A model generated the notes under the pieces. The model saw nothing but the letters and a program-made list of their open reading frames with translations, had not been told where the DNA came from and did no database searches. This document shows, in pieces, positions 25,301 through 36,340 of a stretch of 64,000 nucleotides of DNA (within the stretch, counting starts at the first letter, position 1; every line of letters begins with the position of its first letter). Position numbers and translations under genes: made by a program. This stretch comes from Escherichia phage 348Ecol098PP. Where the stretch lies: sequence record OR062947.1. One strand, given 5' to 3'.

Positions 25301-26247
25301 TCATTTGGACGAATATTTGAATCCGCACGGATAATACGAAGACGCGATTTCTGGTCGCCTTCCCATATACGCCATAAACTATTTGCAGCATCAAAAACAA
25401 AAAACGCGTCAGAGTCATTTCTGCCTTCGGCAATATGAGTCCCGACTTCACCAATAGACGTTGTATCATCAAATGTTTTAACAATTGTATGATACAGTGG
25501 GTTTAATTTATCTAAATCAACTAGGTGGATTATATCACCATTGTTAGCATTACGTGGAAGTGTAATGTTGATTGGCGCTGCACTAGTAAAACGACGAACG
25601 ATAAAATCATTTGCTTGTGCTTGATATGGTGCCGCAGGTGTAACAGTGATTGATTCTTTACCATAATCTATAATATACATCTGCCACAAACGATTACTAA
25701 ACACAAACAATAGTTGTGAACGCGGACGCGTCATTAAAACTGTACGAACCTGTTCACCTCTAAAGTTTAAAATACTCTGCACAGACGCGTTAATCTGTAC
25801 TTTAACTGTCCCGGTTCTTCCACCAATATCAGCCAAAACAATAGTGTCACCATCAACCGGCGCATTTGGCAACGTGAAAACCATATCATTGCCGGCACCA
25901 GTGTTAACCGAAATAGATTCACCTGAAGAAAGTTGATAAGTCCCAGAAGCGACAGTTATCCATTGTGCATCAGTACGAACTGCACGCCATTGTAAAAGGT
26001 TAAATGCCCCGGAAGGAGACACGATATCATTTATTGCTTGATATAAACGGTTGTCATAAAGAACAACAAATCCTTTGTTATATCCACGCGTAGAATCATA
26101 TACTTGAACGGTGTTTTCTTGTACCAGGAAGTCAACGTTTACGCCATCAGTACCTACTGTACGGTCGGCTAATGCTACGTTAACAATCTTGTCGCCACCG
26201 GCGTCCAGACCGTCTTCGGCTCTGAACTTACGTTTGATGTCGGCCAT
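22372..26247 (-). CDS. 34: long tail fibre proximal subunit gp34
   Basis: 1291-aa ORF (T4 gp34 is 1289 aa); repeated ...IATQAE.NAGTDDT...TPKKL segments. Confidence 0.9.
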   Translation of the reverse strand: MADIKRKFRAEDGLDAGGDKIVNVALADRTVGTDGVNVDFLVQENTVQVYDSTRGYNKGFVVLYDNRLYQAINDIVSPSGAFNLLQWRAVRTDAQWITVASGTYQLSSGESISVNTGAGNDMVFTLPNAPVDGDTIVLADIGGRTGTVKVQINASVQSILNFRGEQVRTVLMTRPRSQLLFVFSNRLWQMYIIDYGKESITVTPAAPYQAQANDFIVRRFTSAAPINITLPRNANNGDIIHLVDLDKLNPLYHTIVKTFDDTTSIGEVGTHIAEGRNDSDAFFVFDAANSLWRIWEGDQKSRLRIIRADSNIRPNEEVLIFGTNNATAGTINLTLPSGILSGDTVKISMNYMRKGQTVKIKAAEGDTIASSVALLQFPKRSEYPPDAQWVSVTELEFNGTTSYVPVLELAYIEDTVAGTRYWVVQQNVPTVERVDAGTDATRARLGVIALATQAQANVDLENTPAKEVAITPETLANRTATEARRGIAKIATTAQVNQNSTAAFVDDTIVTPKKLNERTATETRRGLAEIATQAETDAGLDDTTIITPKKLQARQGSETLSGIVKYVSTTSATPAETRGAAGTNVYNKTVNNLTISPKALDQYKATYAQQGAVILAVDSEVIAGQSQAGYSHAVVTPETLHKKTSTDGRIGLIEIATQAETNAGTDYTRAVTPKTLNDRKATEGLSGIAELATQVEFDTGTDDTRISTPLKIKTHFDSSDRTSVNSDSGLIEEGTLWNHYTLDISKANETQRGTLRVATQAESNAGTLDDVLITPKKLLGTKSTETSEGVIKVATQAETITGTSANTAVSPKNLKWIVQNEPTWAATTAIRGFVKTSSGSITFIGNDTVGSTQPLESYEKNSYAVSPYELNRVLANYLPLKAKAVDSNLLDGLDSSQFIRRDIAQTVNGSLTLTQQTNLSAPLVSSSTGEFGGSLAANSTFTIRNTGASTRLIFEKGPQTGNNPFQTMNIRVWGNQFAGGSDTSRSTIFEVGDETSNHFYSQRNKAGNITFSVNGTVMPINVNASGSLNANGVATFGSSVTANGEFISKSANAFRAISGDYGFLIRNDGTNTYFLLTHPGGQTGGFSGLRPLAINNVSGQVTIAEGLIIAKGATINSGGLTVNSRIRSQGIKTSDLYTRAPTSDTVGFWSIDINDSATYNQFPGYFKMVEKTNEVTGLPYLERGEEVKSPGTLTQFGNTLDSLYQDWITYPTTPEARTTRWTRTWQKTKNSWSSFVQVFDGGNPPQPSDIGALPSDNATIGNLTIRDFLRIGNVRIIPDPVNKSVKFEWIE

Positions 26248-26277
26248 TCGTTTTTCCTTTATTGTTTCAATAATACT

Positions 26278-26285
26278 TATTTATA
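26278..26285 (-). promoter_or_regulatory. late promoter TATAAATA for gene 34
   Basis: Reverse complement of plus-strand tatttata, about 30 nt before the gene 34 start. Confidence 0.6.
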
Positions 26286-26288
26286 CCA

Positions 26289-26318
26289 GTTTACGCTTTC
26301 AAATGAGTGTGTTACTAT
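26289..26318 (+). promoter_or_regulatory. T4-type early promoter (rnh)
   Basis: GTTTAC at 26289-26294, gtgttactatag -10 region; divergent from the gene 34 late promoter. Confidence 0.5.
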
Positions 26319-26350
26319 AGTCAAGTTGACTAACTGAACAAGAGGTTCAT

Positions 26351-27268
26351 ATGGATTTAGAAATGATGTTGGATGAAGATTACAAAGAAGGTATTGCACT
26401 TGCTGACTTTAGTAACATTGCATTAGCAGCCGCGTTAAACAACTTTGAAGACGGTGATAAAATTACTGTTCCAATGGTTCGACATGTAATCTTGAATTCA
26501 ATTCGTAAAAACGTAGTGATGTTCCGTAAGCAAGGCTATACAAAATTTGTATTGTGTATGGATAATGCTACTTCAGGTTATTGGCGTCGTGACTTTGCTT
26601 ACTATTACAAGAAAAATCGTAAAACCGATCGTGAAGCTTCAAAGTGGGATTGGGAAGGATATTTTACTGCACTCCATCAAGTTGTTGATGAGATTAAGAA
26701 ATACATGCCATACGTTGTAATGGATATTGACAAGTATGAAGCGGATGACCATATTGGTGTATTAACTAAATATTTGTCATTAGCTGGTCATAAGGTATGT
26801 ATTGTTGCATCAGATGGTGACTTTACACAATTACACAAATATCCTAACGTTAAACAGTGGTCGCCACCACAGAAAAAATGGGTTAAAATTAAGAACGGTT
26901 CTGCTGAAATTGATTGCATGACTAAAATTCTTAAAGGTGACCGTAAGGATGGTGTCGCATCGGTTCGAGTTCGTGGCGACTTCTGGTTTACCAGAGTTGA
27001 AGGTGAACGAACTCCAAGCATGAAAACATCAATTATTGAAGCAATTGCTAACGACCGTTCTCAAGCTGAAGTATTATTAAGTGCAGAAGAATATAAACGG
27101 TATCAAGAAAATTTGGTTCTCATTGATTTTGATTATATCCCTGATAATATTGCTTCAACCATTATAGAGTATTATAACTCATATAAACCACAACCTAAAG
27201 GCAAGATTTATTCATACTTTGTAAAATCTGGTCTTTCTAAATTAACAAGTGTAATTAATGAATTCTGA
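26351..27268 (+). CDS. rnh: RNase H (5'-3' exonuclease, FEN family)
   Basis: 305-aa ORF, same length as T4 RNase H; FEN-like acidic motifs; position after the tail-fibre module. Confidence 0.85.
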   Translation: MDLEMMLDEDYKEGIALADFSNIALAAALNNFEDGDKITVPMVRHVILNSIRKNVVMFRKQGYTKFVLCMDNATSGYWRRDFAYYYKKNRKTDREASKWDWEGYFTALHQVVDEIKKYMPYVVMDIDKYEADDHIGVLTKYLSLAGHKVCIVASDGDFTQLHKYPNVKQWSPPQKKWVKIKNGSAEIDCMTKILKGDRKDGVASVRVRGDFWFTRVEGERTPSMKTSIIEAIANDRSQAEVLLSAEEYKRYQENLVLIDFDYIPDNIASTIIEYYNSYKPQPKGKIYSYFVKSGLSKLTSVINEF

Positions 27269-27275
27269 GGTAAAC

Positions 27276-27545
27276 ATGGCTAAGAAAGAAGCAGTTGAAT
27301 TTAATCAAGATGTGCATGGTGAAGAACTGGCTAAACTAGTCAAGGAAGCTTCCGATAACAAACTTAAAATTTCTGGTTATAATGAACTGATTAAAGACAT
27401 TCGTACTCGTGCTAAAGAAGAGCTTGGTGTCGATGGAAAAATGTTTAATCGTTTGTTAGCTCTTTATCATAAAGACGCTCGTGACCAATTTGAAGCTGAA
27501 AATGAAGAGGTAGTCGAGCTTTATGACACAGTTTTCACTAAGTGA
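27276..27545 (+). CDS. dsbA: double-stranded DNA binding protein DsbA
   Basis: 89 aa from the ATG at 27276 (gagg RBS), matching T4 DsbA length; the track ORF starts earlier. Confidence 0.7.
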   Translation: MAKKEAVEFNQDVHGEELAKLVKEASDNKLKISGYNELIKDIRTRAKEELGVDGKMFNRLLALYHKDARDQFEAENEEVVELYDTVFTK

Positions 27546-27861
27546 TATTAAACCGGTTGATGAGGCCGGTTTATCTGAACAAGAATTAGCAGTAAAACAC
27601 GATAAAGATGATATCGCTAAATTGCTTGACCGACAAGAAAACGGATTCATTATAGAATCCATGGTTGAACAATTTGGTATGTCTTATTTAGAAGCAACAA
27701 CTGCGTTCTTGGAAGAAAATTCTATTCCAGAAACACAATTTGCTAAATTTATTCCTACAGGAATTGTTGAAAAAATTACAAGCGAAGCAATTGACGAAAA
27801 CATGCTTCGCCCGTCAGTTGCTCGTGGTGAAAAAACTAATACGTTAGATTTCTTATTATGA
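27523..27861 (+). CDS. 33: late transcription co-activator gp33
   Basis: 112-aa ORF; LLDRQENGFIIE.MVE.FGMSYLEATTAFLEENSIPETQFAKFIP matches recalled T4 gp33. Confidence 0.85.
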   Translation: MTQFSLSDIKPVDEAGLSEQELAVKHDKDDIAKLLDRQENGFIIESMVEQFGMSYLEATTAFLEENSIPETQFAKFIPTGIVEKITSEAIDENMLRPSVARGEKTNTLDFLL

Positions 27862-28541
27862 AATACGTTGTGTATAAAACTACCAATAAAATAAATGGTA
27901 AAATTTATATAGGCGTACACAAAAAACATAAAGAGAAAGATTGGTATATTGGATCAGGCCGCGCTATATTAGCGGCCAAAGCTAAATATGGACTAAAAAA
28001 TTTTTATACCGAAATTCTTTATGAATATGATAATGACAAGGACGCCTATAAAAAAGAAGCAGAATTGGTTAATGAAGATTTTGTTTTGCGAACTGATACT
28101 TATAACTTAGTTCCCGGTGGTAAAGGTGGCCCTGGTAAAAAACAAAGTGATGAAGCTAAAAGGGCTATTTCACTTTCTAAATTAGGTAAACCTAGATCTG
28201 AAGAGACTAAGGCTAAAGTATCTAAAACCAGATTAGAAAGAAAAATACCATCCCCTAATAAGGGTAAGAAACTATCTGAAGCTCATAAATTAGCTTTGAG
28301 TAAAGTCCGAAAAGGGCGAAAAACGAATAAGCCGATGCCTGATTCAACCAAAGAAGCTCTTAGAATAGCAAATTCAAAGCCGCATTCTAAAGAAAGAACT
28401 ATTAAAAAACAAAAACCTATAATTATTGATGGTATAAAATACTCATCATGCACAGAAGTTTCGGATGTTTTTAATATTTCTGCATCTCTAGTTACGTATA
28501 GACTTAAATCTTCAAAATGGCCTGGATGGAACTATGATTAA
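27858..28541 (+). CDS. free-standing GIY-YIG homing endonuclease (Seg-like)
   Basis: 227-aa ORF; N-terminal VYKTTNKINGKIYIGVH (GIY-YIG class), NUMOD3-like repeats (GKK.SEAHK), C-terminus IIIDGIKYSSCTEVSDVFNISASLVTYRLKS resembles the I-TevI DNA-binding tail. Confidence 0.75.
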   Translation: MKYVVYKTTNKINGKIYIGVHKKHKEKDWYIGSGRAILAAKAKYGLKNFYTEILYEYDNDKDAYKKEAELVNEDFVLRTDTYNLVPGGKGGPGKKQSDEAKRAISLSKLGKPRSEETKAKVSKTRLERKIPSPNKGKKLSEAHKLALSKVRKGRKTNKPMPDSTKEALRIANSKPHSKERTIKKQKPIIIDGIKYSSCTEVSDVFNISASLVTYRLKSSKWPGWNYD

Positions 28542-29187
28542 AATACGCATGCCTCCTGACGGAGAACGTTATATTAACGGTAAATCAGTATATAAACTAT
28601 ACTTGATGTGCAAAAACCACTTTGGTGGTCGGTATGACGTAATCAAATATAACTGGTGCATGCGTGTTTCGGATAATGCGTATCAAAAACGTCGAGATAA
28701 ATATTTCTTTGAAAAACTAGCAGAGAAATATAAATTGAAGGAACTCACCTTGATATTCATAAGCAACTTAGTTGCTAACCAAGACGCATGGATTGGTGAG
28801 ATATCAGACGCTGATGCATTAGTTTTCTATAGGGAATATATTGGACGACTAAAACAAGCTAAAGAGACGTTTGCTGAAGACGTACGTAACATCTACTATT
28901 TCAGTAAGAAAGTTGAAGTTAGTGCGCTTCAAGAGATATTTGATTATAATAATAAAGTTCAGTCGAGCTACATATTTAAATTGCTACAAAGCAATATAAT
29001 TTCATTTGAAACTTTCTTATTGTTGGACTCGTTTTTGAATATTATAGATAAGCACGACGAACTCACCGATAACTTAGTCTGGCAAAATTATTCTACCAAA
29101 TTAAAGGCATATCGAAAAATACTTCAAATCGATAGAAATGCTGCTAAGAAATTGTTCATAGAAACAATCAAATCATGTAAGTATTAA
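28534..29187 (+). CDS. 59: helicase loader gp59
   Basis: 217-aa ORF, same length as T4 gp59; directly upstream of gene 32. Confidence 0.8.
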   Translation: MIKIRMPPDGERYINGKSVYKLYLMCKNHFGGRYDVIKYNWCMRVSDNAYQKRRDKYFFEKLAEKYKLKELTLIFISNLVANQDAWIGEISDADALVFYREYIGRLKQAKETFAEDVRNIYYFSKKVEVSALQEIFDYNNKVQSSYIFKLLQSNIISFETFLLLDSFLNIIDKHDELTDNLVWQNYSTKLKAYRKILQIDRNAAKKLFIETIKSCKY

Positions 29188-29303
29188 GCTTTATTTCTTG
29201 TGTGTTAAAATTACTTTATAAATAAAACATACCAGCTACGAGGTATAAGTGTCGTAGCAACCAACTGTAAATAAATTAAATAATCTAAATAAAGGTAAAT
29301 ATA
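29188..29303 (+). promoter_or_regulatory. gene 32 leader: late promoter TATAAATA (29217-29224), candidate pseudoknot stem and AU-rich translational operator
   Basis: tataaata at 29217-29224; stem gctacg (29235-29240) / cgtagc (29253-29258); UAAAUAAAUUAAAUAAUCUAAAUAAA tract before the ATG. Confidence 0.55.
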
Positions 29304-30206
29304 ATGTTTAAACGTAAATCTACTGCTGACCTCGCTGCTCAAATGGCTAAACTGAATGGTAACAAAGGTTTCTCTTCAGAAGATAAAGGCGAATGGAAGC
29401 TGAAGCTAGATGCATCCGGTAATGGTCAAGCGGTAATTCGTTTCTTGCCAGCAAAAACTGATGATGCACTACCATTTGCAATTCTTGTTAACCACGGTTT
29501 CAAGAAAAATGGTAAATGGTATATTGAAAATTGCTCTTCTACACACGGTGATTATGACTCTTGTCCTGTATGTCAGTACATTAGTAAAAATGACCTGTAC
29601 AATACTAACAAAAATGAATATTCTCAACTGAAACGTAAAACTTCTTATTGGGCTAATATTCTGGTTGTTAAAGACCCTCAAGCTCCAGATAACGAAGGTA
29701 AAGTATTTAAATATCGTTTCGGTAAAAAGATTTGGGACAAAATCAATGCAATGATTGCTGTTGATACCGAAATGGGTGAAACTCCAGTTGATGTTACTTG
29801 TCCGTTTGAAGGTGCCAACTTCGTTCTGAAAGCTAAGCAGGTTTCTGGTTTTAGCAACTATGACGAATCTAAATTCTTGGGTCAATCTGAAATTCCTCGT
29901 ATTAATGACGAAGCATTCCAGAAAGAACTATATGACCAGATGGTAGATCTTACTACTTTGACGGCTAAAGACCAGTTCAAATCCTTTGAAAAATTAAATG
30001 AATCTTTCGCTAAGGTTCTTGGTACTGCCGCTCTTGGTGGTGCAGCAGCCGCAGCAGCTTCTGTTGCAGATAAAGTTGCTTCTGACCTTGACGATTTTGA
30101 TAAAGACATGGAAGCCTTTAGTTCTGCAAAAACTGAAGATGACTTCATGAGCTCTACCTCATCCTCTGATGATGGTGACCTCGATGACCTGTTAGCTGGT
30201 CTATAA
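29304..30206 (+). CDS. 32: single-stranded DNA binding protein gp32
   Basis: 300-aa ORF; [36 protein letters not shown]...RFLP, zinc site C-x-H...C...C, acidic C-terminal tail. Confidence 0.9.
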
Positions 30207-30212
30207 TAAATT

Positions 30213-30234
30213 GGGAGACTTCGGTCTCCCTTTT
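30213..30234 (+). terminator. rho-independent terminator
   Basis: gggagacTTCGgtctccc followed by tttt. Confidence 0.65.
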
Positions 30235-30261
30235 GAGTATCTGTAAATTGCCGAAAAAGTT

Positions 30262-30290
30262 GTTTACTTCTTCCCTGGATGTGTTAGTAT
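30262..30290 (+). promoter_or_regulatory. T4-type early promoter
   Basis: GTTTAC at 30262-30267, 17-nt spacer, tagtat at 30285-30290. Confidence 0.5.
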
Positions 30291-30319
30291 AGACCTATCA
30301 ACAACATGAGGAAATCAAA

Positions 30320-30724
30320 ATGGAAATCGGAAAATCTTATATCATTAACCCTTTATTTAAAGATGACTTTGTTCAAGAAGCACCACACAATAACGCTAAG
30401 ATGTTAAAATTGATTGAACTCCACGGGCCTAGTTTTGTTGTAAACGGAATGGAACCTGATTATGATAGCGATACGTCAAACGTAGTAAGTGTAACTATGG
30501 AAGATGGTACTGTATGTTCTGCCGGTGGTGAAATTGAAACTTATTTTGAGATTTATCCTGACGAGTTCAAATACTTTATTGAGTACTTTACTGAGGTAAC
30601 TTTAGAAAAGCCTCAACCTACTAACGAAGGTATAACTTTAGGTGTAACAAAAATCCATTGTATCGTAGATGAAACCAACGTCGACGAAATCATCAAACTT
30701 TTGCAAAAAACTTTTAAAAAGTAG
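30320..30724 (+). CDS. hypothetical protein (frd.3 position)
   Basis: 134-aa ORF with gagga RBS. Confidence 0.55.
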   Translation: MEIGKSYIINPLFKDDFVQEAPHNNAKMLKLIELHGPSFVVNGMEPDYDSDTSNVVSVTMEDGTVCSAGGEIETYFEIYPDEFKYFIEYFTEVTLEKPQPTNEGITLGVTKIHCIVDETNVDEIIKLLQKTFKK

Positions 30725-30762
30725 TGTACAATCAGATAGGGTTATGTTATAGTAGCCCTATC
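30724..30762 (+). promoter_or_regulatory. early promoter-like element inside a stem-loop
   Basis: GTGTAC -35-like; inverted repeat gataggg/ccctatc around ttatgttatag. Confidence 0.4.
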
Positions 30763-30788
30763 AAATCAAAAGTGAAGCGGAGAATAAA

Positions 30789-31037
30789 ATGAGATTGCAA
30801 CGCCAGAGCATCAAAGATTCGGAAGTTAGAGGTAAATGGTACTTCAACATCGTCGGTAAAGACGCTGAACTCCTTGAACAAGCTGAAGAAGCTTTACGAG
30901 AAATGGGTTGGAACGAAGAATGTGATGGATGTCCACTCTACGAAGATGGTGAAAGTGCAGGATTCTGGATTTATCATTCTGACGTCGATCAGTTTAAAGC
31001 TGATTGGAAAGTTGTTAAGAAAAATCTGAGGAAATAA
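30789..31037 (+). CDS. hypothetical protein (frd.2 position)
   Basis: 82-aa ORF with RBS. Confidence 0.5.
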   Translation: MRLQRQSIKDSEVRGKWYFNIVGKDAELLEQAEEALREMGWNEECDGCPLYEDGESAGFWIYHSDVDQFKADWKVVKKNLRK

Positions 31038-31039
31038 TT

Positions 31040-31288
31040 ATGAATGTTGTTGTTGAATACTCTCAAGGCGCTGATGTCGGATATGAAGTTTATACTTCAG
31101 TTAATTTAGACCATCCGGATTTGGCCGAATTCATTGGCGACGCATTTGATTTGTCTGGGCGATACACAACAAAACCTCGCGTTTGTGTTATAACATTTGA
31201 CCCGACCGACGGCTGTCAAATCCAGACTGATTTGGTTTCTTCTAAATCACAAATCCAAAAAGTTATTAAAGGACTTAAAAATGCTTAA
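31040..31288 (+). CDS. hypothetical protein (frd.1 position)
   Basis: 82-aa ORF with gagga RBS. Confidence 0.5.
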   Translation: MNVVVEYSQGADVGYEVYTSVNLDHPDLAEFIGDAFDLSGRYTTKPRVCVITFDPTDGCQIQTDLVSSKSQIQKVIKGLKNA

Positions 31289-31868
31289 ATTAGTATTCGC
31301 ATGTGCTCCGACTAAAACAGTTGATGATAAGCTGGAATATGCTTTTGGATTAGGTGATGGACTTCCATGGAAGCATATCAAACAAGATATGAGTAACTTT
31401 GTTGCTCGCACTAAAAACACTGTAATGGTTATGGGTGCTAAGACTTTTGCATCATTACCTCGTCTACTCCAAGACCGTACTCATGTGGTTGTCACTGATA
31501 TGGCCAGAAAACTGCCTAGGACTAAAACCAACGAACTTGCACGGTTCTATATCACCCAATCTGAATTTATTACCTTGGTAACAGGTGGTGAAATTAACCT
31601 GTTTAGCCCTGCAACTGATGTACCGTTTAAACTTTCTACTGAACATGTTGATGTATCTGTTATCGGCGGTCCTGCTTTATTAAAACAAGCACTGCCTTAT
31701 GCCGATGAAATCGTGATGACTAAAATCATTAAGAAATGTCGTGTTAATTCCGATGTTCAACTTGATAAAGATTTCGTCCAAGATATTATGCTTCAACGTT
31801 CTATGGTAGAATCTCATTACTACAGAATCGATGAACTCACCGAAATTACTGAGAGCGTGTATAAATGA
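31281..31868 (+). CDS. frd: dihydrofolate reductase
   Basis: 195 aa from the ATG at 31281; MLKLVFACAPTK...FGLGDGLPWKHIKQDM resembles the DHFR N-terminus; immediately upstream of td. Confidence 0.8.
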   Translation: MLKLVFACAPTKTVDDKLEYAFGLGDGLPWKHIKQDMSNFVARTKNTVMVMGAKTFASLPRLLQDRTHVVVTDMARKLPRTKTNELARFYITQSEFITLVTGGEINLFSPATDVPFKLSTEHVDVSVIGGPALLKQALPYADEIVMTKIIKKCRVNSDVQLDKDFVQDIMLQRSMVESHYYRIDELTEITESVYK

Positions 31869-32413
31869 AACAATACCAATACCTGATTAATGATATCCTA
31901 GAAAATGGTTATGAAACAGACGACCGTACAGGTACCGGCACTATTGCCCTGTTCGGAACTAAATTGCGATGGGATCTGACTAAAGGATTCCCTGCGGTAA
32001 CAACTAAGAAATTAGCATGGAAAGCTTGTATTGCCGAGCTATTATGGTTCATGTCTGGTTCTACCAATGTTAATGATTTGCGTATTCGTACTCATGGTAG
32101 TCTTATTCAAGGTAAAACTATTTGGGACGACAACTATGAAAATCAGGCAAAAGACCTTGGATATCATAGCGGCGAACTTGGTCCTATTTATGGTAAGCAA
32201 TGGCGTGATTTCGGCGGTGTAGACCAATTGGTCAAAACTATCGACCGTATTAAAGCTCTTCCTAATGATCGTCGTCAAATAGTTTCTGCATGGAACCCGG
32301 CCGAAATTGACCAAATGGCTCTTCCTCCTTGTCATATGTTCTATCAATTTAATGTGCGTAATGGTCATCTTGATTTACAATGGTACCAACGAAGTGTTGA
32401 TGTTTTCTTAGGT
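31865..32413 (+). CDS. td: thymidylate synthase, exon 1 (codons 1-183)
   Basis: TS motifs (RTGTGT, PPCH.FYQF); the ORF ends at a UAA that is the first triplet of the intron. Confidence 0.85.
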
Positions 32414-33429
32414 TAATTTAGGCCTAGGTATAAGGCGACTTATACTTGTAATCTATCTAAACGGGGAACCTCTCTAGTAGACAATCCCGTGCTAAATTGT
32501 AGGACTACCCTTTAATAAATACTTCTATATAAAAAGAGGTGTTTATGAAAAGCGGAATTTATCAGATTAAAAACACTTTAAACGGTAAAGTGTATGTTGG
32601 AAGTGCTAAAGATTTTGAGAAAAGATGGAAGAGACATTTTAAAGACCTTGAAAACGGTGTTCACTCTTCTATAAAATTTCAAAGGTCTTTTAATAAACAT
32701 GGTAATGTTTTTGAATGCTCTGTACTGGAAGAAATTCCATATGAGAAAGATTTGATTATTGAACGAGAAAATTTTTGGATTAAAGAGCTAAATTCTAAAA
32801 TTAATGGATATAATATTGCTGATGCGTCTTTTGGCGATGTGCTTTCAAATCATCCATTAAAAGAAGAAATTGCTAAGAAACGAGCTGAAACTGTTAAAGC
32901 TAAGATGCTTAAGCTTGGTCCTGATGGTCGGAAAGCTCTTTATGGTAAACACGGAAGTAAAAATGGCCGATGGAATCCAGAAAACCACAAGTTTTGTAAA
33001 TGCGGTGTTCGCATACCATCTTCGGCCGATACTTGTGGAAAGTGCCGAAAACGTTCAGGTGAAAATAACCCGTTCTTTAATCACAAACATTCAGAAAAAA
33101 CTAAAACTAAACTATCTGAAAAGATGAAAGGCAAAAAGCCAGCTAACATCAAAAAGATTTCATGCGATGGGATTATTTTTGAATGTGCAGCCGATGCGGC
33201 TAGACATTTTGAAATTTCATCAGGATTAGTTACTTACCGTGTAAAATCTGATAAGTGGAATTGGTTCTACATAAATGCCTAACGACTATCCCTTTAGGGA
33301 GTAGGGTCAAGTGACTCGAAACGATAGACAACTTGCTTTAACAAGTTGGAGATATAGTCTGCTCTGCATGGTGACATGCAGCTGGATATAATTCCGGGAT
33401 AAGATTAACGACCTTATCTGAACATAATG
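32414..33429 (+). mobile_element. group I self-splicing intron in td (1016 nt)
   Basis: Begins uaauu.aggccu..guauaaggugacuuauacuuguaaucuaucuaaacgggga and ends ...cuuaucugaacauaauG before exon 2 cuaccguu, as recalled for the T4 td intron; length is exactly 1016. Confidence 0.85.
32545..33282 (+). CDS. I-TevI: intron-encoded GIY-YIG homing endonuclease I-TevI
   Basis: 245 aa; MKSGIYQIKNTLNGKVYVGSAKDFEKRWKRH, zinc finger CKCG...CGKC, C-terminal VTYRVKSDKWNWFYINA, near-identical to recalled T4 I-TevI. Confidence 0.85.
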   Translation: MKSGIYQIKNTLNGKVYVGSAKDFEKRWKRHFKDLENGVHSSIKFQRSFNKHGNVFECSVLEEIPYEKDLIIERENFWIKELNSKINGYNIADASFGDVLSNHPLKEEIAKKRAETVKAKMLKLGPDGRKALYGKHGSKNGRWNPENHKFCKCGVRIPSSADTCGKCRKRSGENNPFFNHKHSEKTKTKLSEKMKGKKPANIKKISCDGIIFECAADAARHFEISSGLVTYRVKSDKWNWFYINA

Positions 33430-33741
33430 CTACCGTTCAACATTGCCTCGTACGCTGCCTTGACGCATATTGTAGCGAAGATGTGTAACCTTATCCCAGG
33501 TGATTTAGTGTTCTCAGGCGGCAACACGCATATCTACAGCAATCATGTAGAACAATGCAAAGAAGTTCTTCGTCGTGAACCTAAAGAGTTATGTTCTCTT
33601 GAAATTAATTGGCCTAGTAATTTTGAGAATTGGCCTACAAAAATCCAAATGGACTGGGTTACTGGAACGATGACATATTCTGATTTCGTTCTTAAAAATT
33701 ACGAATCACATCCAGCTATCAAAGCTAAAATGGCGGTATAA
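33430..33741 (+). CDS. td: thymidylate synthase, exon 2 (codons 184-286)
   Basis: Continues in frame as LPFNIASYA...; exon 1 plus exon 2 gives 286 aa, the T4 TS length. Confidence 0.85.
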   Translation, partial: LPFNIASYAALTHIVAKMCNLIPGDLVFSGGNTHIYSNHVEQCKEVLRREPKELCSLEINWPSNFENWPTKIQMDWVTGTMTYSDFVLKNYESHPAIKAKMAV

Positions 33742-33742
33742 A

Positions 33743-33997
33743 ATGATTTTACGTTTTATTAATTCATATGGCACCACAATTTTTGAAATGAAAAATCCTA
33801 CCGAACTAGATATCCCTTCACCGAATAGTGAAATCACAGTCAAAGGTGAACGATTCATTTGCTATTCACATGAACGAATTTATGAATATCGTGAATTTTG
33901 TGGTGGTTACGGTATGGAAAAAGAACCATTGGTTTATTTCGATATCACGGTCTTGACACCTAAAGAATACGAAGAAATTATTGCTGAGGATAATTAA
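33743..33997 (+). CDS. hypothetical protein
   Basis: 84-aa ORF between td and nrdA. Confidence 0.45.
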   Translation: MILRFINSYGTTIFEMKNPTELDIPSPNSEITVKGERFICYSHERIYEYREFCGGYGMEKEPLVYFDITVLTPKEYEEIIAEDN

Positions 33998-34084
33998 CGC
34001 TTCAGTTTAAAAGTGTATAATAAATTAACGGGATAAATACTATCCCGTTTGGAGTAATGTCTATCAACCTATACTGAGGACTAT

Positions 34085-36340
34085 ATGCAAGTAACTAAGA
34101 GCAGTGGTGTATCCCAAAATTTTGATGCACAGAAAATTATTCAAGTCTTAACTTGGCAATGTGAAGGAACACAAATTGACCCATATGAATTGTACGAAGA
34201 AATTAAGACCCATCTTGTTGACGGGATGAGCACCAAAGATATCCAGAAGATTTGTATTAAAGTTGCAGCTAACTCGATTTCTGTCGAAGAACCTGATTAT
34301 CAGTATGTCGCCGCCAAAGGGCTAATGTTTGCACTTCGTAAAGATGTATATGGGCAGTTTGAACCGCCTGCTTTTATCGACCATATTTCTTATTGTGTTA
34401 ATGAAGGCAAATATGACCCTGAGCTGTTGTCTCAATATTCAGCAGAAGAAATCATTTATCTCGATTCACAGATTAAACATGAGCGAGATTTTGACCTGAC
34501 TTATGCTGGTGCTATGCAGCTTAAAGAAAAATACCTGGTTAAAGATAAAACAACTGGGAAGATTTATGAAACTCCCCAGTTTGCTATCATGGCCATTGGC
34601 ATGGCCTTACACCAAGACGAAACTCATGACCGTTTGAAACATATTATTCGTTTTTATGATGCCGTTTCTACTCATCAAGTTTCATTGCCTACCCCAATTA
34701 TGGCAGGTGCTCGTACTCCAACTCGCCAGTTCTCTAGTTGTGTAGTTATTGAAGCAGGTGATTCGTTAAAATCTATTAACAAAACTTCAGCATCAATTAT
34801 TGAATATATTTCTAAACGAGCTGGTATCGGTATCAACGTTGGTATGCTTCGTGCAGAAGGTTCTAAGATCGGTATGGGTGAAGTTCGACATACAGGTGTT
34901 ATTCCATTCTGGAAACATTTCCAAACTGCAGTAAAATCTTGTTCTCAAGGTGGTATTCGTGGTGGTGCTGCTACAGCGTATTATCCGATGTGGCACTTAG
35001 AAGTAGAGAACCTATTAGTTCTGAAAAATAACAAAGGCGTGGATGAAAACCGTATTCGTCATATGGACTACGGAATTCAGATTAATGACCTTATGATGGA
35101 ACGCCTTGGTAAAAATGATTATATTACTTTATTTAGCCCTCACGAAATGTCAGGCGAACTATACTACTCGTTCTTTGAAGATCAAGATAAATTCCGTGAG
35201 CTTTATGAGAAAGCTGAAAAAGACCCGTCAATCAGAAAGAAAAGAATCAAAGCACTAGAACTCTTTGAATTGTTCATGACTGAACGTTCTGGCACTGCTC
35301 GAATTTATCCACAGTTTGTTGATAACACGAATAACTACACTCCATTTATTCGTGAAAAAGCTCCAATTCGTCAGAGTAACTTATGTTGTGAAATCGCTAT
35401 TCCAACTAATGATGTGAATGGTCCTGATGCTGAAATTGGTTTATGCACATTATCTGCTTTTGTATTAGATAAATTTGATTGGCAAGACCAAGATAAAATT
35501 AATGAACTTGCTGAAGTACAAGTACGTGCACTTGATAACCTGTTAGACTATCAAGATTATCCGGTTCCAGAAGCTTTAAAAGCTAAAAAGCGTCGAAACC
35601 TCGGTGTTGGTGTTACGAACTATGCCGCATGGTTAGCTTCCAACTTTGCTTCATATGAAGACGCTAACGATTTGACTCATGAATTGTTTGAGAGATTGCA
35701 ATATGGCCTTATCAAAGCATCAATCAAACTCGCCAAAGAAAAAGGATGTTGCGAGTATTATTCAGACACTAAATGGTCTAGAGGCGAATTACCTATCGAC
35801 TGGTACAATAAAAAGATTGACCAAATCGCAGCCCCGAACTACGTCTGTGACTGGGAAGAACTTCGAGCTGAACTCAAAGAACATGGAATTCGTAACTCAA
35901 CGTTGTCTGCACTCATGCCTTGTGAGTCAAGCAGTCAAGTATCGAACTCTACAAATGGGATTGAGCCACCACGCGGTCCAGTAAGTATTAAAGAATCTAA
36001 AGAAGGCAACTTCCGACAGGTTGTTCCTAATATCGAACATAACATGAGTCTTTACGACTATGCGTGGAAACTTGCTAAGAAAGGTAATAAACCTTATTTG
36101 ACCCAAGTTGCTATCATGTTGAAATGGGTGTGCCAATCTGCTTCTGCTAATACTTACTATGACCCTGCAGTATTTGAGAAAGGTAAAGTGCCAATGTCAG
36201 TAATGCTTGACGATCTGCTTTACTTCTGGTACTTTGGCGGAAAAAACCTCTACTATCATAACACTCGTGATGGGTCTGGTACAGACGACTATGAATTAGA
36301 AACACCTAAAGCAGAAGATTGTTCTGCTTGTAAGCTTTAA
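34085..36340 (+). CDS. nrdA: ribonucleoside-diphosphate reductase alpha subunit
   Basis: 751-aa ORF with class I RNR motifs (ATP-cone N-terminus, catalytic NLCCEI, C-terminal CSACKL). Confidence 0.9.
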   Translation: MQVTKSSGVSQNFDAQKIIQVLTWQCEGTQIDPYELYEEIKTHLVDGMSTKDIQKICIKVAANSISVEEPDYQYVAAKGLMFALRKDVYGQFEPPAFIDHISYCVNEGKYDPELLSQYSAEEIIYLDSQIKHERDFDLTYAGAMQLKEKYLVKDKTTGKIYETPQFAIMAIGMALHQDETHDRLKHIIRFYDAVSTHQVSLPTPIMAGARTPTRQFSSCVVIEAGDSLKSINKTSASIIEYISKRAGIGINVGMLRAEGSKIGMGEVRHTGVIPFWKHFQTAVKSCSQGGIRGGAATAYYPMWHLEVENLLVLKNNKGVDENRIRHMDYGIQINDLMMERLGKNDYITLFSPHEMSGELYYSFFEDQDKFRELYEKAEKDPSIRKKRIKALELFELFMTERSGTARIYPQFVDNTNNYTPFIREKAPIRQSNLCCEIAIPTNDVNGPDAEIGLCTLSAFVLDKFDWQDQDKINELAEVQVRALDNLLDYQDYPVPEALKAKKRRNLGVGVTNYAAWLASNFASYEDANDLTHELFERLQYGLIKASIKLAKEKGCCEYYSDTKWSRGELPIDWYNKKIDQIAAPNYVCDWEELRAELKEHGIRNSTLSALMPCESSSQVSNSTNGIEPPRGPVSIKESKEGNFRQVVPNIEHNMSLYDYAWKLAKKGNKPYLTQVAIMLKWVCQSASANTYYDPAVFEKGKVPMSVMLDDLLYFWYFGGKNLYYHNTRDGSGTDDYELETPKAEDCSACKL

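Follow-up and report, generated by a model that had tools for sequence, protein, structure and literature searches.

A Seg-like GIY-YIG endonuclease gene between genes 33 and 59 of Escherichia phage 348Ecol098PP and a linked substitution patch in gene 59

Among T4-like phages, differences in gene content and localised marker exclusion come mainly from free-standing homing endonucleases. Here we describe a gene of this kind, called seg below: an open reading frame (ORF) of the GIY-YIG class, located between the essential genes 33 and 59 in a 64,000-nucleotide (nt) stretch of Escherichia phage 348Ecol098PP (OR062947.1), referred to as the window. Sequence comparison makes it likely that seg encodes a functional free-standing Seg-type GIY-YIG homing endonuclease, spreading by intronless homing, with the 5' end of gene 59 as its predicted target. 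Part of this is already known: genes of this family are labelled 'homing endonuclease' in GenBank, and their variable presence was noted in the LC53 paper (PMC10132071). The main new result is a patch of substitutions in gene 59 that is linked to the presence of seg.

Intronless homing is an established paradigm for SegF, SegG, SegB and mobE of T4 (PMC2988022). The signature described for the free-standing endonucleases of that phage is a cut in a neighbouring essential gene, in which the carrier differs and from which the difference is co-converted (PMC2988022), and, as far as sequences can tell, the gene 59 patch is this signature. The mechanism proposed below is also that of SegF and SegG, which cut in an adjacent essential gene, at a site where donor and recipient are not alike, with co-conversion of the flanking markers (PMC2988022; PMC535899). 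In T4, genes 33 and 59 are adjacent, with an overlap of 4 nt, and segG occupies the space between genes 59 and 32 (PMC535899); a preliminary description of the window had this arrangement right. Orthology of seg with segG was rejected, since the proteins are about 16% identical in alignment and the 59-32 spacer of the window has only about 117 nt; SegG lies on the other side of gene 59 and targets gene 32. The targets of SegF and SegG are hundreds of base pairs (bp) away from the insertion point, and the one predicted for seg, 15-92 bp from the insertion, is much closer.

Among the T4 proteins, the closest paralogue is SegD, which is about 39-42% identical in amino acid (aa) sequence over its whole length and has in common with the Seg protein both the three-part architecture and the Seg-type motif H..D.Y.GSG. 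The two genes differ in place and orientation: segD is found between genes 23 and 24 and runs antisense to the genes beside it (PMC2988022), and seg, at 33/59, runs in the direction of its neighbours. The next-best matches (about 37-38%) are orthologues from Klebsiella, Enterobacter and Cronobacter phages at the SegD position. With an identity of only about 40% and a different locus, SegD is a paralogue and not an orthologue. SegH was also rejected as an orthologue, since SegH proteins (e.g. in phage F2, beside the class III ribonucleotide reductase activase gene nrdG) are about 34% identical and occupy another locus. For the same reasons, the GenBank annotation 'SegH; similar to RB3 segH' of the copy in Shigella phage Shf125875 (L127, 901-1584) is a similarity-based misnomer. 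I-TevI, encoded in the td intron of T4, has the same GIY-YIG catalytic fold and a close C-terminal helix-turn-helix with the motif LVTYR(L/V)KS.KW. It is intron-encoded, whereas seg is free-standing, and the overall identity is about 24-27%; the Seg protein of the window is devoid of the Arg27/His31 helix and of the zinc finger of I-TevI, and its linker is made of NUMOD3-like helices.

An insertion at the 33/59 junction and a linked patch in gene 59

The ORF list and Pfam searches confirmed the coordinates and the flanking gene names of the preliminary description, and both overlaps that it claimed, with the gene 33 stop (ATGA) and with the gene 59 start, are present in the sequence. The features of the locus are the following:

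27858..28541, + strand: seg-like ORF, free-standing GIY-YIG homing endonuclease gene, ATG start, 227 aa plus stop (ORF list)
27523..27861, + strand: gene 33, late-transcription co-activator, upstream flank (Pfam Trans_coact/gp33, 3.5e-26)
28534..29187, + strand: gene 59 for the helicase loader, flanking seg downstream and predicted to be its target (Pfam T4_Gp59_N, 1.9e-49; T4_Gp59_C, 2.1e-44)
27858..27861, + strand: ATGA, the seg start codon overlapping the gene 33 stop TGA (sequence)
28534..28541, + strand: ATGATTAA, the gene 59 start, which overlaps GAT, the last codon of seg, and its stop TAA at 28539-28541 (sequence)
27858..28533: insertion of 676 bp, absent from the empty 33/59 junction, with TATGA on both sides (alignment with NRG-P0074)
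28560..28625 (gene 59 nt 27-92): seg-linked substitution patch, predicted target and self-immunity region (single-nucleotide polymorphism tables, probe)

By its sequence the window belongs to Mosigvirus: the 1.9-kb stretch from dsbA to gene 59 is 96.5-99.1% identical to that of Mosigvirus (RB69-like) phages such as PHB12 and phi25-307. This stretch matched 173 records, with full coverage in 28. The other close matches (>=95%) aligned in two pieces covering 65% of it, which indicates that the ORF is absent from those records. Genome comparison thus shows a presence/absence polymorphism, with the gene found in 28 of the 154 Mosigvirus GenBank records (seg+) and missing from 126 (seg-). The BASEL phage PaulHMueller is, like PHB12 and phi25-307, a seg+ phage. 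In NRG-P0074 the empty junction reads TTCTTATTATGATTAAAATACGC, with the gene 33 stop and the gene 59 start sharing ATGA, and the same insertion boundaries emerged when 13 seg+ and 11 seg- loci were aligned. The precise 676-bp insert and the clean ATGA-joined empty site bear out the suggestion of an independent endonuclease insertion. Alleles without the endonuclease, whose lack at this locus would have spoken against that suggestion, are the majority in Mosigvirus, Dhakavirus and Karamvirus and make up half of Winklervirus. Among 22 diverse T4-like junctions collected from IMG/VR by a gp59 search, genes 33 and 59 abut in 20 of the 21 in which gene 33 was found, the exception (L014) carrying the insert.

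The Seg protein is 100% identical in aa sequence to the products of PHB12 and phi25-307 genes annotated as 'homing endonuclease' or 'Seg-like', and the identical protein was found in dozens of metagenome contigs (50 blocks). Searching IMG/VR with it brought up distant homologues only (<=44%, over short segments), none of them a close relative. That the ORF is a chance reading frame or a product of mis-assembly is vanishingly improbable, being refuted by strong family matches, by its occurrence in 28 independent GenBank genomes and in dozens of metagenome contigs, and by purifying selection (see below).

In the aligned Mosigvirus loci (13 seg+, 11 seg-), no fixed difference between the two classes was found anywhere in gene 33. 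In gene 59, nine sites within nt 27-92 are identical in 13/13 seg+ loci and have the alternative base in 9/11 seg- loci. To take these nine sites as fixed in all seg+ alleles would be too strong, since the divergent seg+ alleles of Shf125875 and JK42 share only five of them. Those five core sites (28593, 28615, 28617, 28624 and 28625) are common to every seg+ allele examined (16 loci), and they give gp59 Asn28/Gly31 in seg+ phages against Gln28/Asn31.

A 71-nt probe across the patch sites divided the 154 Mosigvirus records into two groups, 58 at least 97.2% identical and 96 at most 91.5% identical, with none between. The linkage is complete in the seg+ direction: all 28 seg+ records fall among the 58 with the probe's patch and none among the other 96 (Fisher's exact p = 7e-15), which include RB69. 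Since the seg- patch state matches T4 and other genera, the seg+ state is taken as derived and the other as ancestral. The derived bases, notably the GG that gives Gly31, occur in no sampled lineage, and an import of the patch from a known genus is not supported. The derived patch is found without the insert in 30 of the 126 seg- records, including NRG-P0074, G53, mobillu, a20 and the LF82 series. These empty derived-patch alleles are candidate resistant alleles; either a short conversion tract or a precise loss of the insert could have produced them.

Orthologues at the same junction and recurrence of the patch

Full-length homologues with 47-57% aa identity form a distinct clade, the next matches being at most 46% identical and mostly of partial coverage. 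They occupy the 33/59 junction with the same 4-nt and 8-nt overlaps; the 8-nt overlap, in which gene 59 sequence provides the stop codon of seg, is also present in loci L003 (Dhakavirus), L090 and L092. We place the seg ORF, a paralogue of segD that is neither segG nor segH, in a clade that is confined to the 33/59 junction of Tevenvirinae. Outside Mosigvirus, it was found in these lineages:

Dhakavirus: seg+ in IME540, LQ5 and AnYang; 4 of about 49 records
Winklervirus: seg+ in CHI14, CBH8, Kc304 and LC53; 5 of 10 records
Karamvirus: seg+ in KMB20; 1 of 33 records
Unsampled metagenomic lineage: seg+ in L090; record count not applicable

The annotated orthologues (those of Serratia phage LC53, gp244, of CHI14, of Kosakonia phage Kc304, of Escherichia phages AnYang, IME540 and LQ5, and of Enterobacter phage KMB20) share the junction and the overlaps with the seg of the window and, where seg- relatives were compared (the KMB20 gene 59 being left out), also the seg-linked gene 59 patch; they differ in belonging to other genera, and some are of a short form. 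In our literature search, no functional characterisation of the 33/59 gene or its orthologues was found, only the comparative note that gp244 (UYM28897.1) is present in LC53 and Kc304 and absent from Virsaitis27 (PMC10132071). The orthologues fall into a long form of 227-236 aa and a short form of 197-204 aa. The short form (P0008-P0015) lacks a block of 34 columns (alignment columns 157-190, query residues ~156-189) that corresponds to the fourth linker helix and the segment after it, and this may alter the distance from the binding to the cleavage site. In Dhakavirus and Winklervirus, the inserts are flanked by a direct repeat of ATGATTAA, so that the endonuclease ORF starts with the first codons of gene 59 (M-I-K).

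A second ORF lies directly after gene 59 in several Dhakavirus phages, at the SegG position (L118, 1800-2403; L003, 3845-4462; L119 and L120, 1818-2403). In Escherichia phage LHE83 (L118) it is annotated as 'homing endonuclease' and overlaps the gene 59 stop, and a hypothetical protein of about 205 aa is encoded at this place in IME540, MX01 and Bp7. Gene 59 can thus be bracketed by mobile endonuclease genes on both sides.

The patch pattern recurs independently in Dhakavirus, Winklervirus and Karamvirus. The comparisons of seg+ and seg- alleles, with identities for gene 59 nt 13-93 and for the rest, are as follows:

Mosigvirus: 89% in nt 13-93, rest 95-96%; 5 core sites, nt 60-92
Dhakavirus: 77-84% in nt 13-93, rest 95-98%; 9 fixed differences, all in nt 15-78
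Winklervirus: 72-73% in nt 13-93, rest 100%; 22 fixed differences, all in nt 28-80
Karamvirus (L092 against CC31-type L008): 75% in nt 13-93, rest 98%

All counted fixed differences fall within gene 59 nt ~13-93, those of Winklervirus spanning 51 nt, and the probability of such clustering by chance is below 2e-7 in every case tested. A patch linked to seg in four lineages supports, at the level of sequence, the earlier suggestion that the endonuclease may drive gene conversion or marker exclusion of its flanking genes. From this pattern we infer that the patch is the cleavage site. Where phages have the ancestral allele, the most likely target is the 5' ~90 bp of their gene 59, the patch of the carrier being a putative immunity.

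Protein architecture, expression and neighbouring genes

Three parts were recognised in the Seg protein:

27858..28133, + strand: GIY-YIG catalytic domain, aa 1-92, with the residues Tyr6, Tyr17-Ile-Gly19, His21, Asp28, Tyr30, Gly32-Ser33-Gly34, Glu67 and Asn83 (family profile against 1mk0, invariant columns, AlphaFold2, Foldseek)
28134..28385, + strand: basic linker with four NUMOD3-like helices, aa 98-108, 115-127, 141-151 and 162-173 (marginal Pfam NUMOD3, model helices)
28404..28535, + strand: I-TevI-type C-terminal helix-turn-helix DNA-binding domain, aa 183-226 (Pfam PF20987, 1i3j matches, Foldseek)

The domains proposed in the preliminary description were recovered, the GIY-YIG fold and the I-TevI-type tail clearly and the NUMOD3-like repeats with marginal Pfam scores; its reading of the first motif has to be corrected, since this is V-V-Y and not G-I-Y. 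In Pfam, I-TevI_DNA-bd (PF20987) matches aa 183-226 with 42.6 bits (E 5.7e-11, curated cut-off 27). NUMOD3 (PF07460) reaches 20.8 bits against a cut-off of 20.4, no single stretch passing alone, and SegE_GIY-YIG, with 22 bits, stays just under its cut-off of 25. The ORF also matches PHROG 314 'homing endonuclease' (1.2e-55). A family profile built from 17 orthologues aligns to two I-TevI domains, the catalytic one (1mk0, E 6e-4) at aa 2-86 and the DNA-binding one (1i3j, E 2e-9) at aa 157-226; a single-sequence phmmer search of PDB found the DNA-binding domain only (1i3j), the catalytic one being matched only with the profile.

An AlphaFold2 model built on 119 homologues (mean predicted local distance difference test score 90.9) has a beta-beta-alpha-beta-alpha core in aa 1-76, with strands at 2-10, 16-23 and 49-57 and helices at 35-44 and 60-70. 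Four short basic helices follow in the linker, and then a C-terminal beta-hairpin and helix-turn-helix (188-226). In Foldseek, the top match is the I-TevI catalytic domain (1mk0/1ln0; probability 1.0, template modelling score by target 0.65), and the I-TevI DNA-binding domain (1i3j) also has probability 1.0. The only meaningful matches in PDB are these two domains and I-HmuI (probability 0.98-1.0).

No late promoter (TATAAATA) was found upstream of or near the seg ORF. Sigma-70-like sites were not above the shuffled expectation (22 against 16.5 +/- 3.4) in a scan that excluded MotA-type middle promoters, and no Shine-Dalgarno sequence was found upstream of seg. Free-standing endonuclease genes of T4 typically overlap the upstream ORF and have no recognisable translation initiation region (PMC2988022). 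Without a recognisable promoter or Shine-Dalgarno sequence of its own, seg is probably transcribed on dsbA-33-59-32 messages. In seg- phages, the same upstream sequence and ATGA link gene 33 to gene 59. The sequence suggests that in seg+ phages seg takes over this coupling, being translated by ATGA coupling to gene 33, and that termination of seg at ATGATTAA would re-couple gene 59. A weak hairpin is predicted in the RNA at 27822..27861 (+ strand, RNA fold), in which the start codon of seg pairs with sequence from the 3' end of gene 33. It could, according to the folding model, enforce translational coupling; its z is -1.9 (131-nt fragment), its stem is rich in G-U pairs, and our reading does not rely on it. 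No RNA structure was found at the gene 59 start (z = +1.2).

Pfam identified RNase H and DsbA as further neighbours upstream and gp32 downstream. The longest dsbA ORF (27258-27545) starts at 27258, encodes 95 aa and overlaps rnh. Its start codon is uncertain; an 89-aa product starting 18 nt downstream is annotated in most GenBank relatives, and the 95-aa form in Shf125875. Gene 32 (29304-30206) is mosaic among phages that are otherwise near-identical: its gp32 is 99.7% identical to that of the window in L004 and about 92.5-92.8% in NRG-P0074 and PHB12, despite rnh, dsbA, 33 and 59 being 99-100% identical. A divergence of the protein binding single-stranded DNA (SSB) from NRG-P0074 is also remarked in the 2026 paper on phage 6phi8 (PMC13600099).

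The thymidylate synthase gene of the window (31865-33741) is split. Exon 1 ends with ...QRSVDVFLG at 32416 and exon 2 (LPFNIASYA...) begins at about 33430, separated by an insert of about 1 kb with a near-identical orthologue of T4 I-TevI (ORF 32545-33282, MKSGIYQIKNTLNGKVYVG...). The split gene and this ORF indicate a td group I intron. An Rfam search of 26000-35000 at the gathering threshold returned nothing, including no group I intron.

A proposed homing cycle for seg and its alternatives

We suggest the following cycle. When seg+ and seg- phages co-infect a cell, the Seg protein would bind DNA through its C-terminal helix-turn-helix and NUMOD3-like helices, and the GIY-YIG domain would cut both strands of the recipient gene 59 within its first ~90 bp. 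Phage recombination would then repair the break on the seg+ template, copying the 676-bp insert together with the 5' patch of the donor gene 59, and seg would presumably be inherited preferentially, for which the lateral transfer between lineages described below is indirect support. The seg+ genome would be protected by its substituted patch (Q28N and N31G plus silent changes in Mosigvirus). Repair tracts ending between the patch and the insert, or a later precise loss of the insert, would leave empty and probably resistant alleles. Cleavage activity and the exact cut site are presumed here.

Several observations weigh against this cycle. The first concerns the catalytic domain. No counterpart of the I-TevI Arg27 could be aligned by hidden Markov model or MAFFT, the I-TevI segment RWKRHF falling in a gap, and no Arg is conserved between Gly19 and Lys43 in the alignments of orthologues and of 119 homologues. 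The position of the patch varies by genus (core nt 60-92 in Mosigvirus, 15-78 in Dhakavirus, 28-80 in Winklervirus). In principle, a single insertion per lineage could have carried the patch along as a hitch-hiker, or the patch could compensate for an altered translation of gene 59. The seg copy of Escherichia phage AV116 (L130, 901-1585) has a 1-nt insertion near nt 307 that causes a +1 frameshift, and is annotated only as a 138-aa C-terminal hypothetical protein; decay therefore does occur. Finally, seg is found in 3-18% of the Mosigvirus, Dhakavirus and Karamvirus records and is not sweeping through them.

With respect to the catalytic residues, the other expected positions are kept. The first motif, VVY, contains Tyr6 and the second is an exact Y17-I-G19, the two tyrosines aligning to Y6 and Y17 of I-TevI. 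Tyr6, Tyr17 and Gly19 are invariant in the 17 orthologues and at least 90% conserved in the 119 homologues, in which Glu67 and Asn83 are invariant; these two align to E75 (the E75A position in 1mk0) and N90 of I-TevI. The Arg27/His31 helix of I-TevI is replaced by a loop with the motif H21...D28-x-Y30-x-G32-S33-G34. T4 SegA, SegD, SegE and SegF are likewise without an alignable Arg27 and have the common motif H-x(6-9)-D-x-Y-x-G-S-G, and SegA, SegE and SegF are listed as active enzymes in a review of T4 mobile elements (PMC2988022). This indicates a property of the Seg subgroup rather than an inactivation, although no statement on an Arg27 equivalent in Seg proteins was found in our literature search. 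Loss of catalytic residues, which the preliminary description had named as a possible objection, thus applies to Arg27 and not to Tyr6, Tyr17, Gly19, Glu67 or Asn83, and its interpretation as an endonuclease is not refuted.

The role of the patch would be different if the enzyme, in the manner of intron-encoded ones, recognised a site spanning the 33/59 junction, with immunity coming from the splitting of that site by the insert and the patch being hitch-hiking, co-converted or a compensation for gene 59 now being coupled in translation to seg. The I-TevI-type architecture is associated with cleavage within about 25 bp of the insertion site (PMC2988022), the patch starts only 15-27 bp from the junction, and the translation context of gene 59 is altered in seg+ genomes, all of which agree with this explanation. 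However, the patch recurs in four lineages with different substitutions, including amino acid changes, and the ancestral patch is kept in no seg+ record (0/96). As for compensation, the Mosigvirus core at nt 60-92 lies beyond the ribosome footprint, and the derived patch persists in 30 seg- records in which 33-59 coupling is restored. We consider a junction-spanning site unlikely.

Selection and mobility bear on another alternative, in which seg is a relic that is no longer mobile, inherited vertically and repeatedly lost, or a domesticated DNA-binding or nuclease protein, the patch reflecting mere linkage. Its low frequency in most genera and the frameshifted copy of AV116 would fit, and the divergence among orthologues (47-57% aa identity), about as large as gp33 and RNase H show between these genera, fits a long residence. 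On the other hand, comparison of the window allele with those of Shf125875 and JK42 (dS, the rate of synonymous substitution, ~0.15, comparable to the flanks) gave a ratio of nonsynonymous to synonymous substitutions (dN/dS) of 0.11, which shows the ORF to be under purifying selection, and the catalytic residues are conserved. Polymorphisms up to about 200 bp away on both sides segregate in seg+ and seg- alleles alike, so the block of seg and patch sits on many flanking haplotypes. Between L090 and the Karamvirus locus L092, identity is 78-87% in the flanking genes, 93-100% in the first ~470 nt of seg and only 48-71% in the 3' DNA-binding part. The L090 enzyme is chimeric, with 155 N-terminal aa of Karamvirus type (98-100%) and a C-terminal domain of Dhakavirus type (79%), and these comparisons show a recent lateral transfer with domain shuffling. 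A localised hyper-divergence in a conserved essential gene is also not expected from linkage alone. A relic or a domesticated protein therefore seems quite improbable to us, and we favour a mobile endonuclease targeting gene 59.

More tentatively, and as a possibility that we would not yet adopt, a 33/59-specific Seg lineage may have persisted at this junction in at least five Tevenvirinae lineages and may travel as a two-part unit, a nuclease together with a portable immunity patch that replaces gene 59 codons ~5-31. The immunity half could survive alone, as the 30 of 126 seg- records may indicate, and nuclease and DNA-binding modules would be re-assorted between lineages. If true, sensitive, invaded and resistant-empty alleles would here be observed side by side, in a natural system sampled unusually well, which could serve for studying the homing cycle and any effect of endonuclease-driven allele replacement on gp59 function or on the compatibility of co-infecting phages.

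The target is predicted at gene 59 nt ~15-92, with phages of RB69 type (Q28/N31) sensitive and those with N28/G31 resistant, and natural controls are supplied by the seg+, empty-sensitive and empty-resistant phages. Arabinosyl-hmC is present in DNA of the RB69 type (PMC6024577). The enzyme would add a new specificity to the few characterised Seg enzymes, and its orthologues a case of shuffling between nuclease and DNA-binding domains, with no concept changed. The gene-content differences and marker exclusion due to free-standing homing endonucleases extend to phages used for therapy, for which many Mosigvirus, Dhakavirus, Winklervirus and Karamvirus isolates are candidates.

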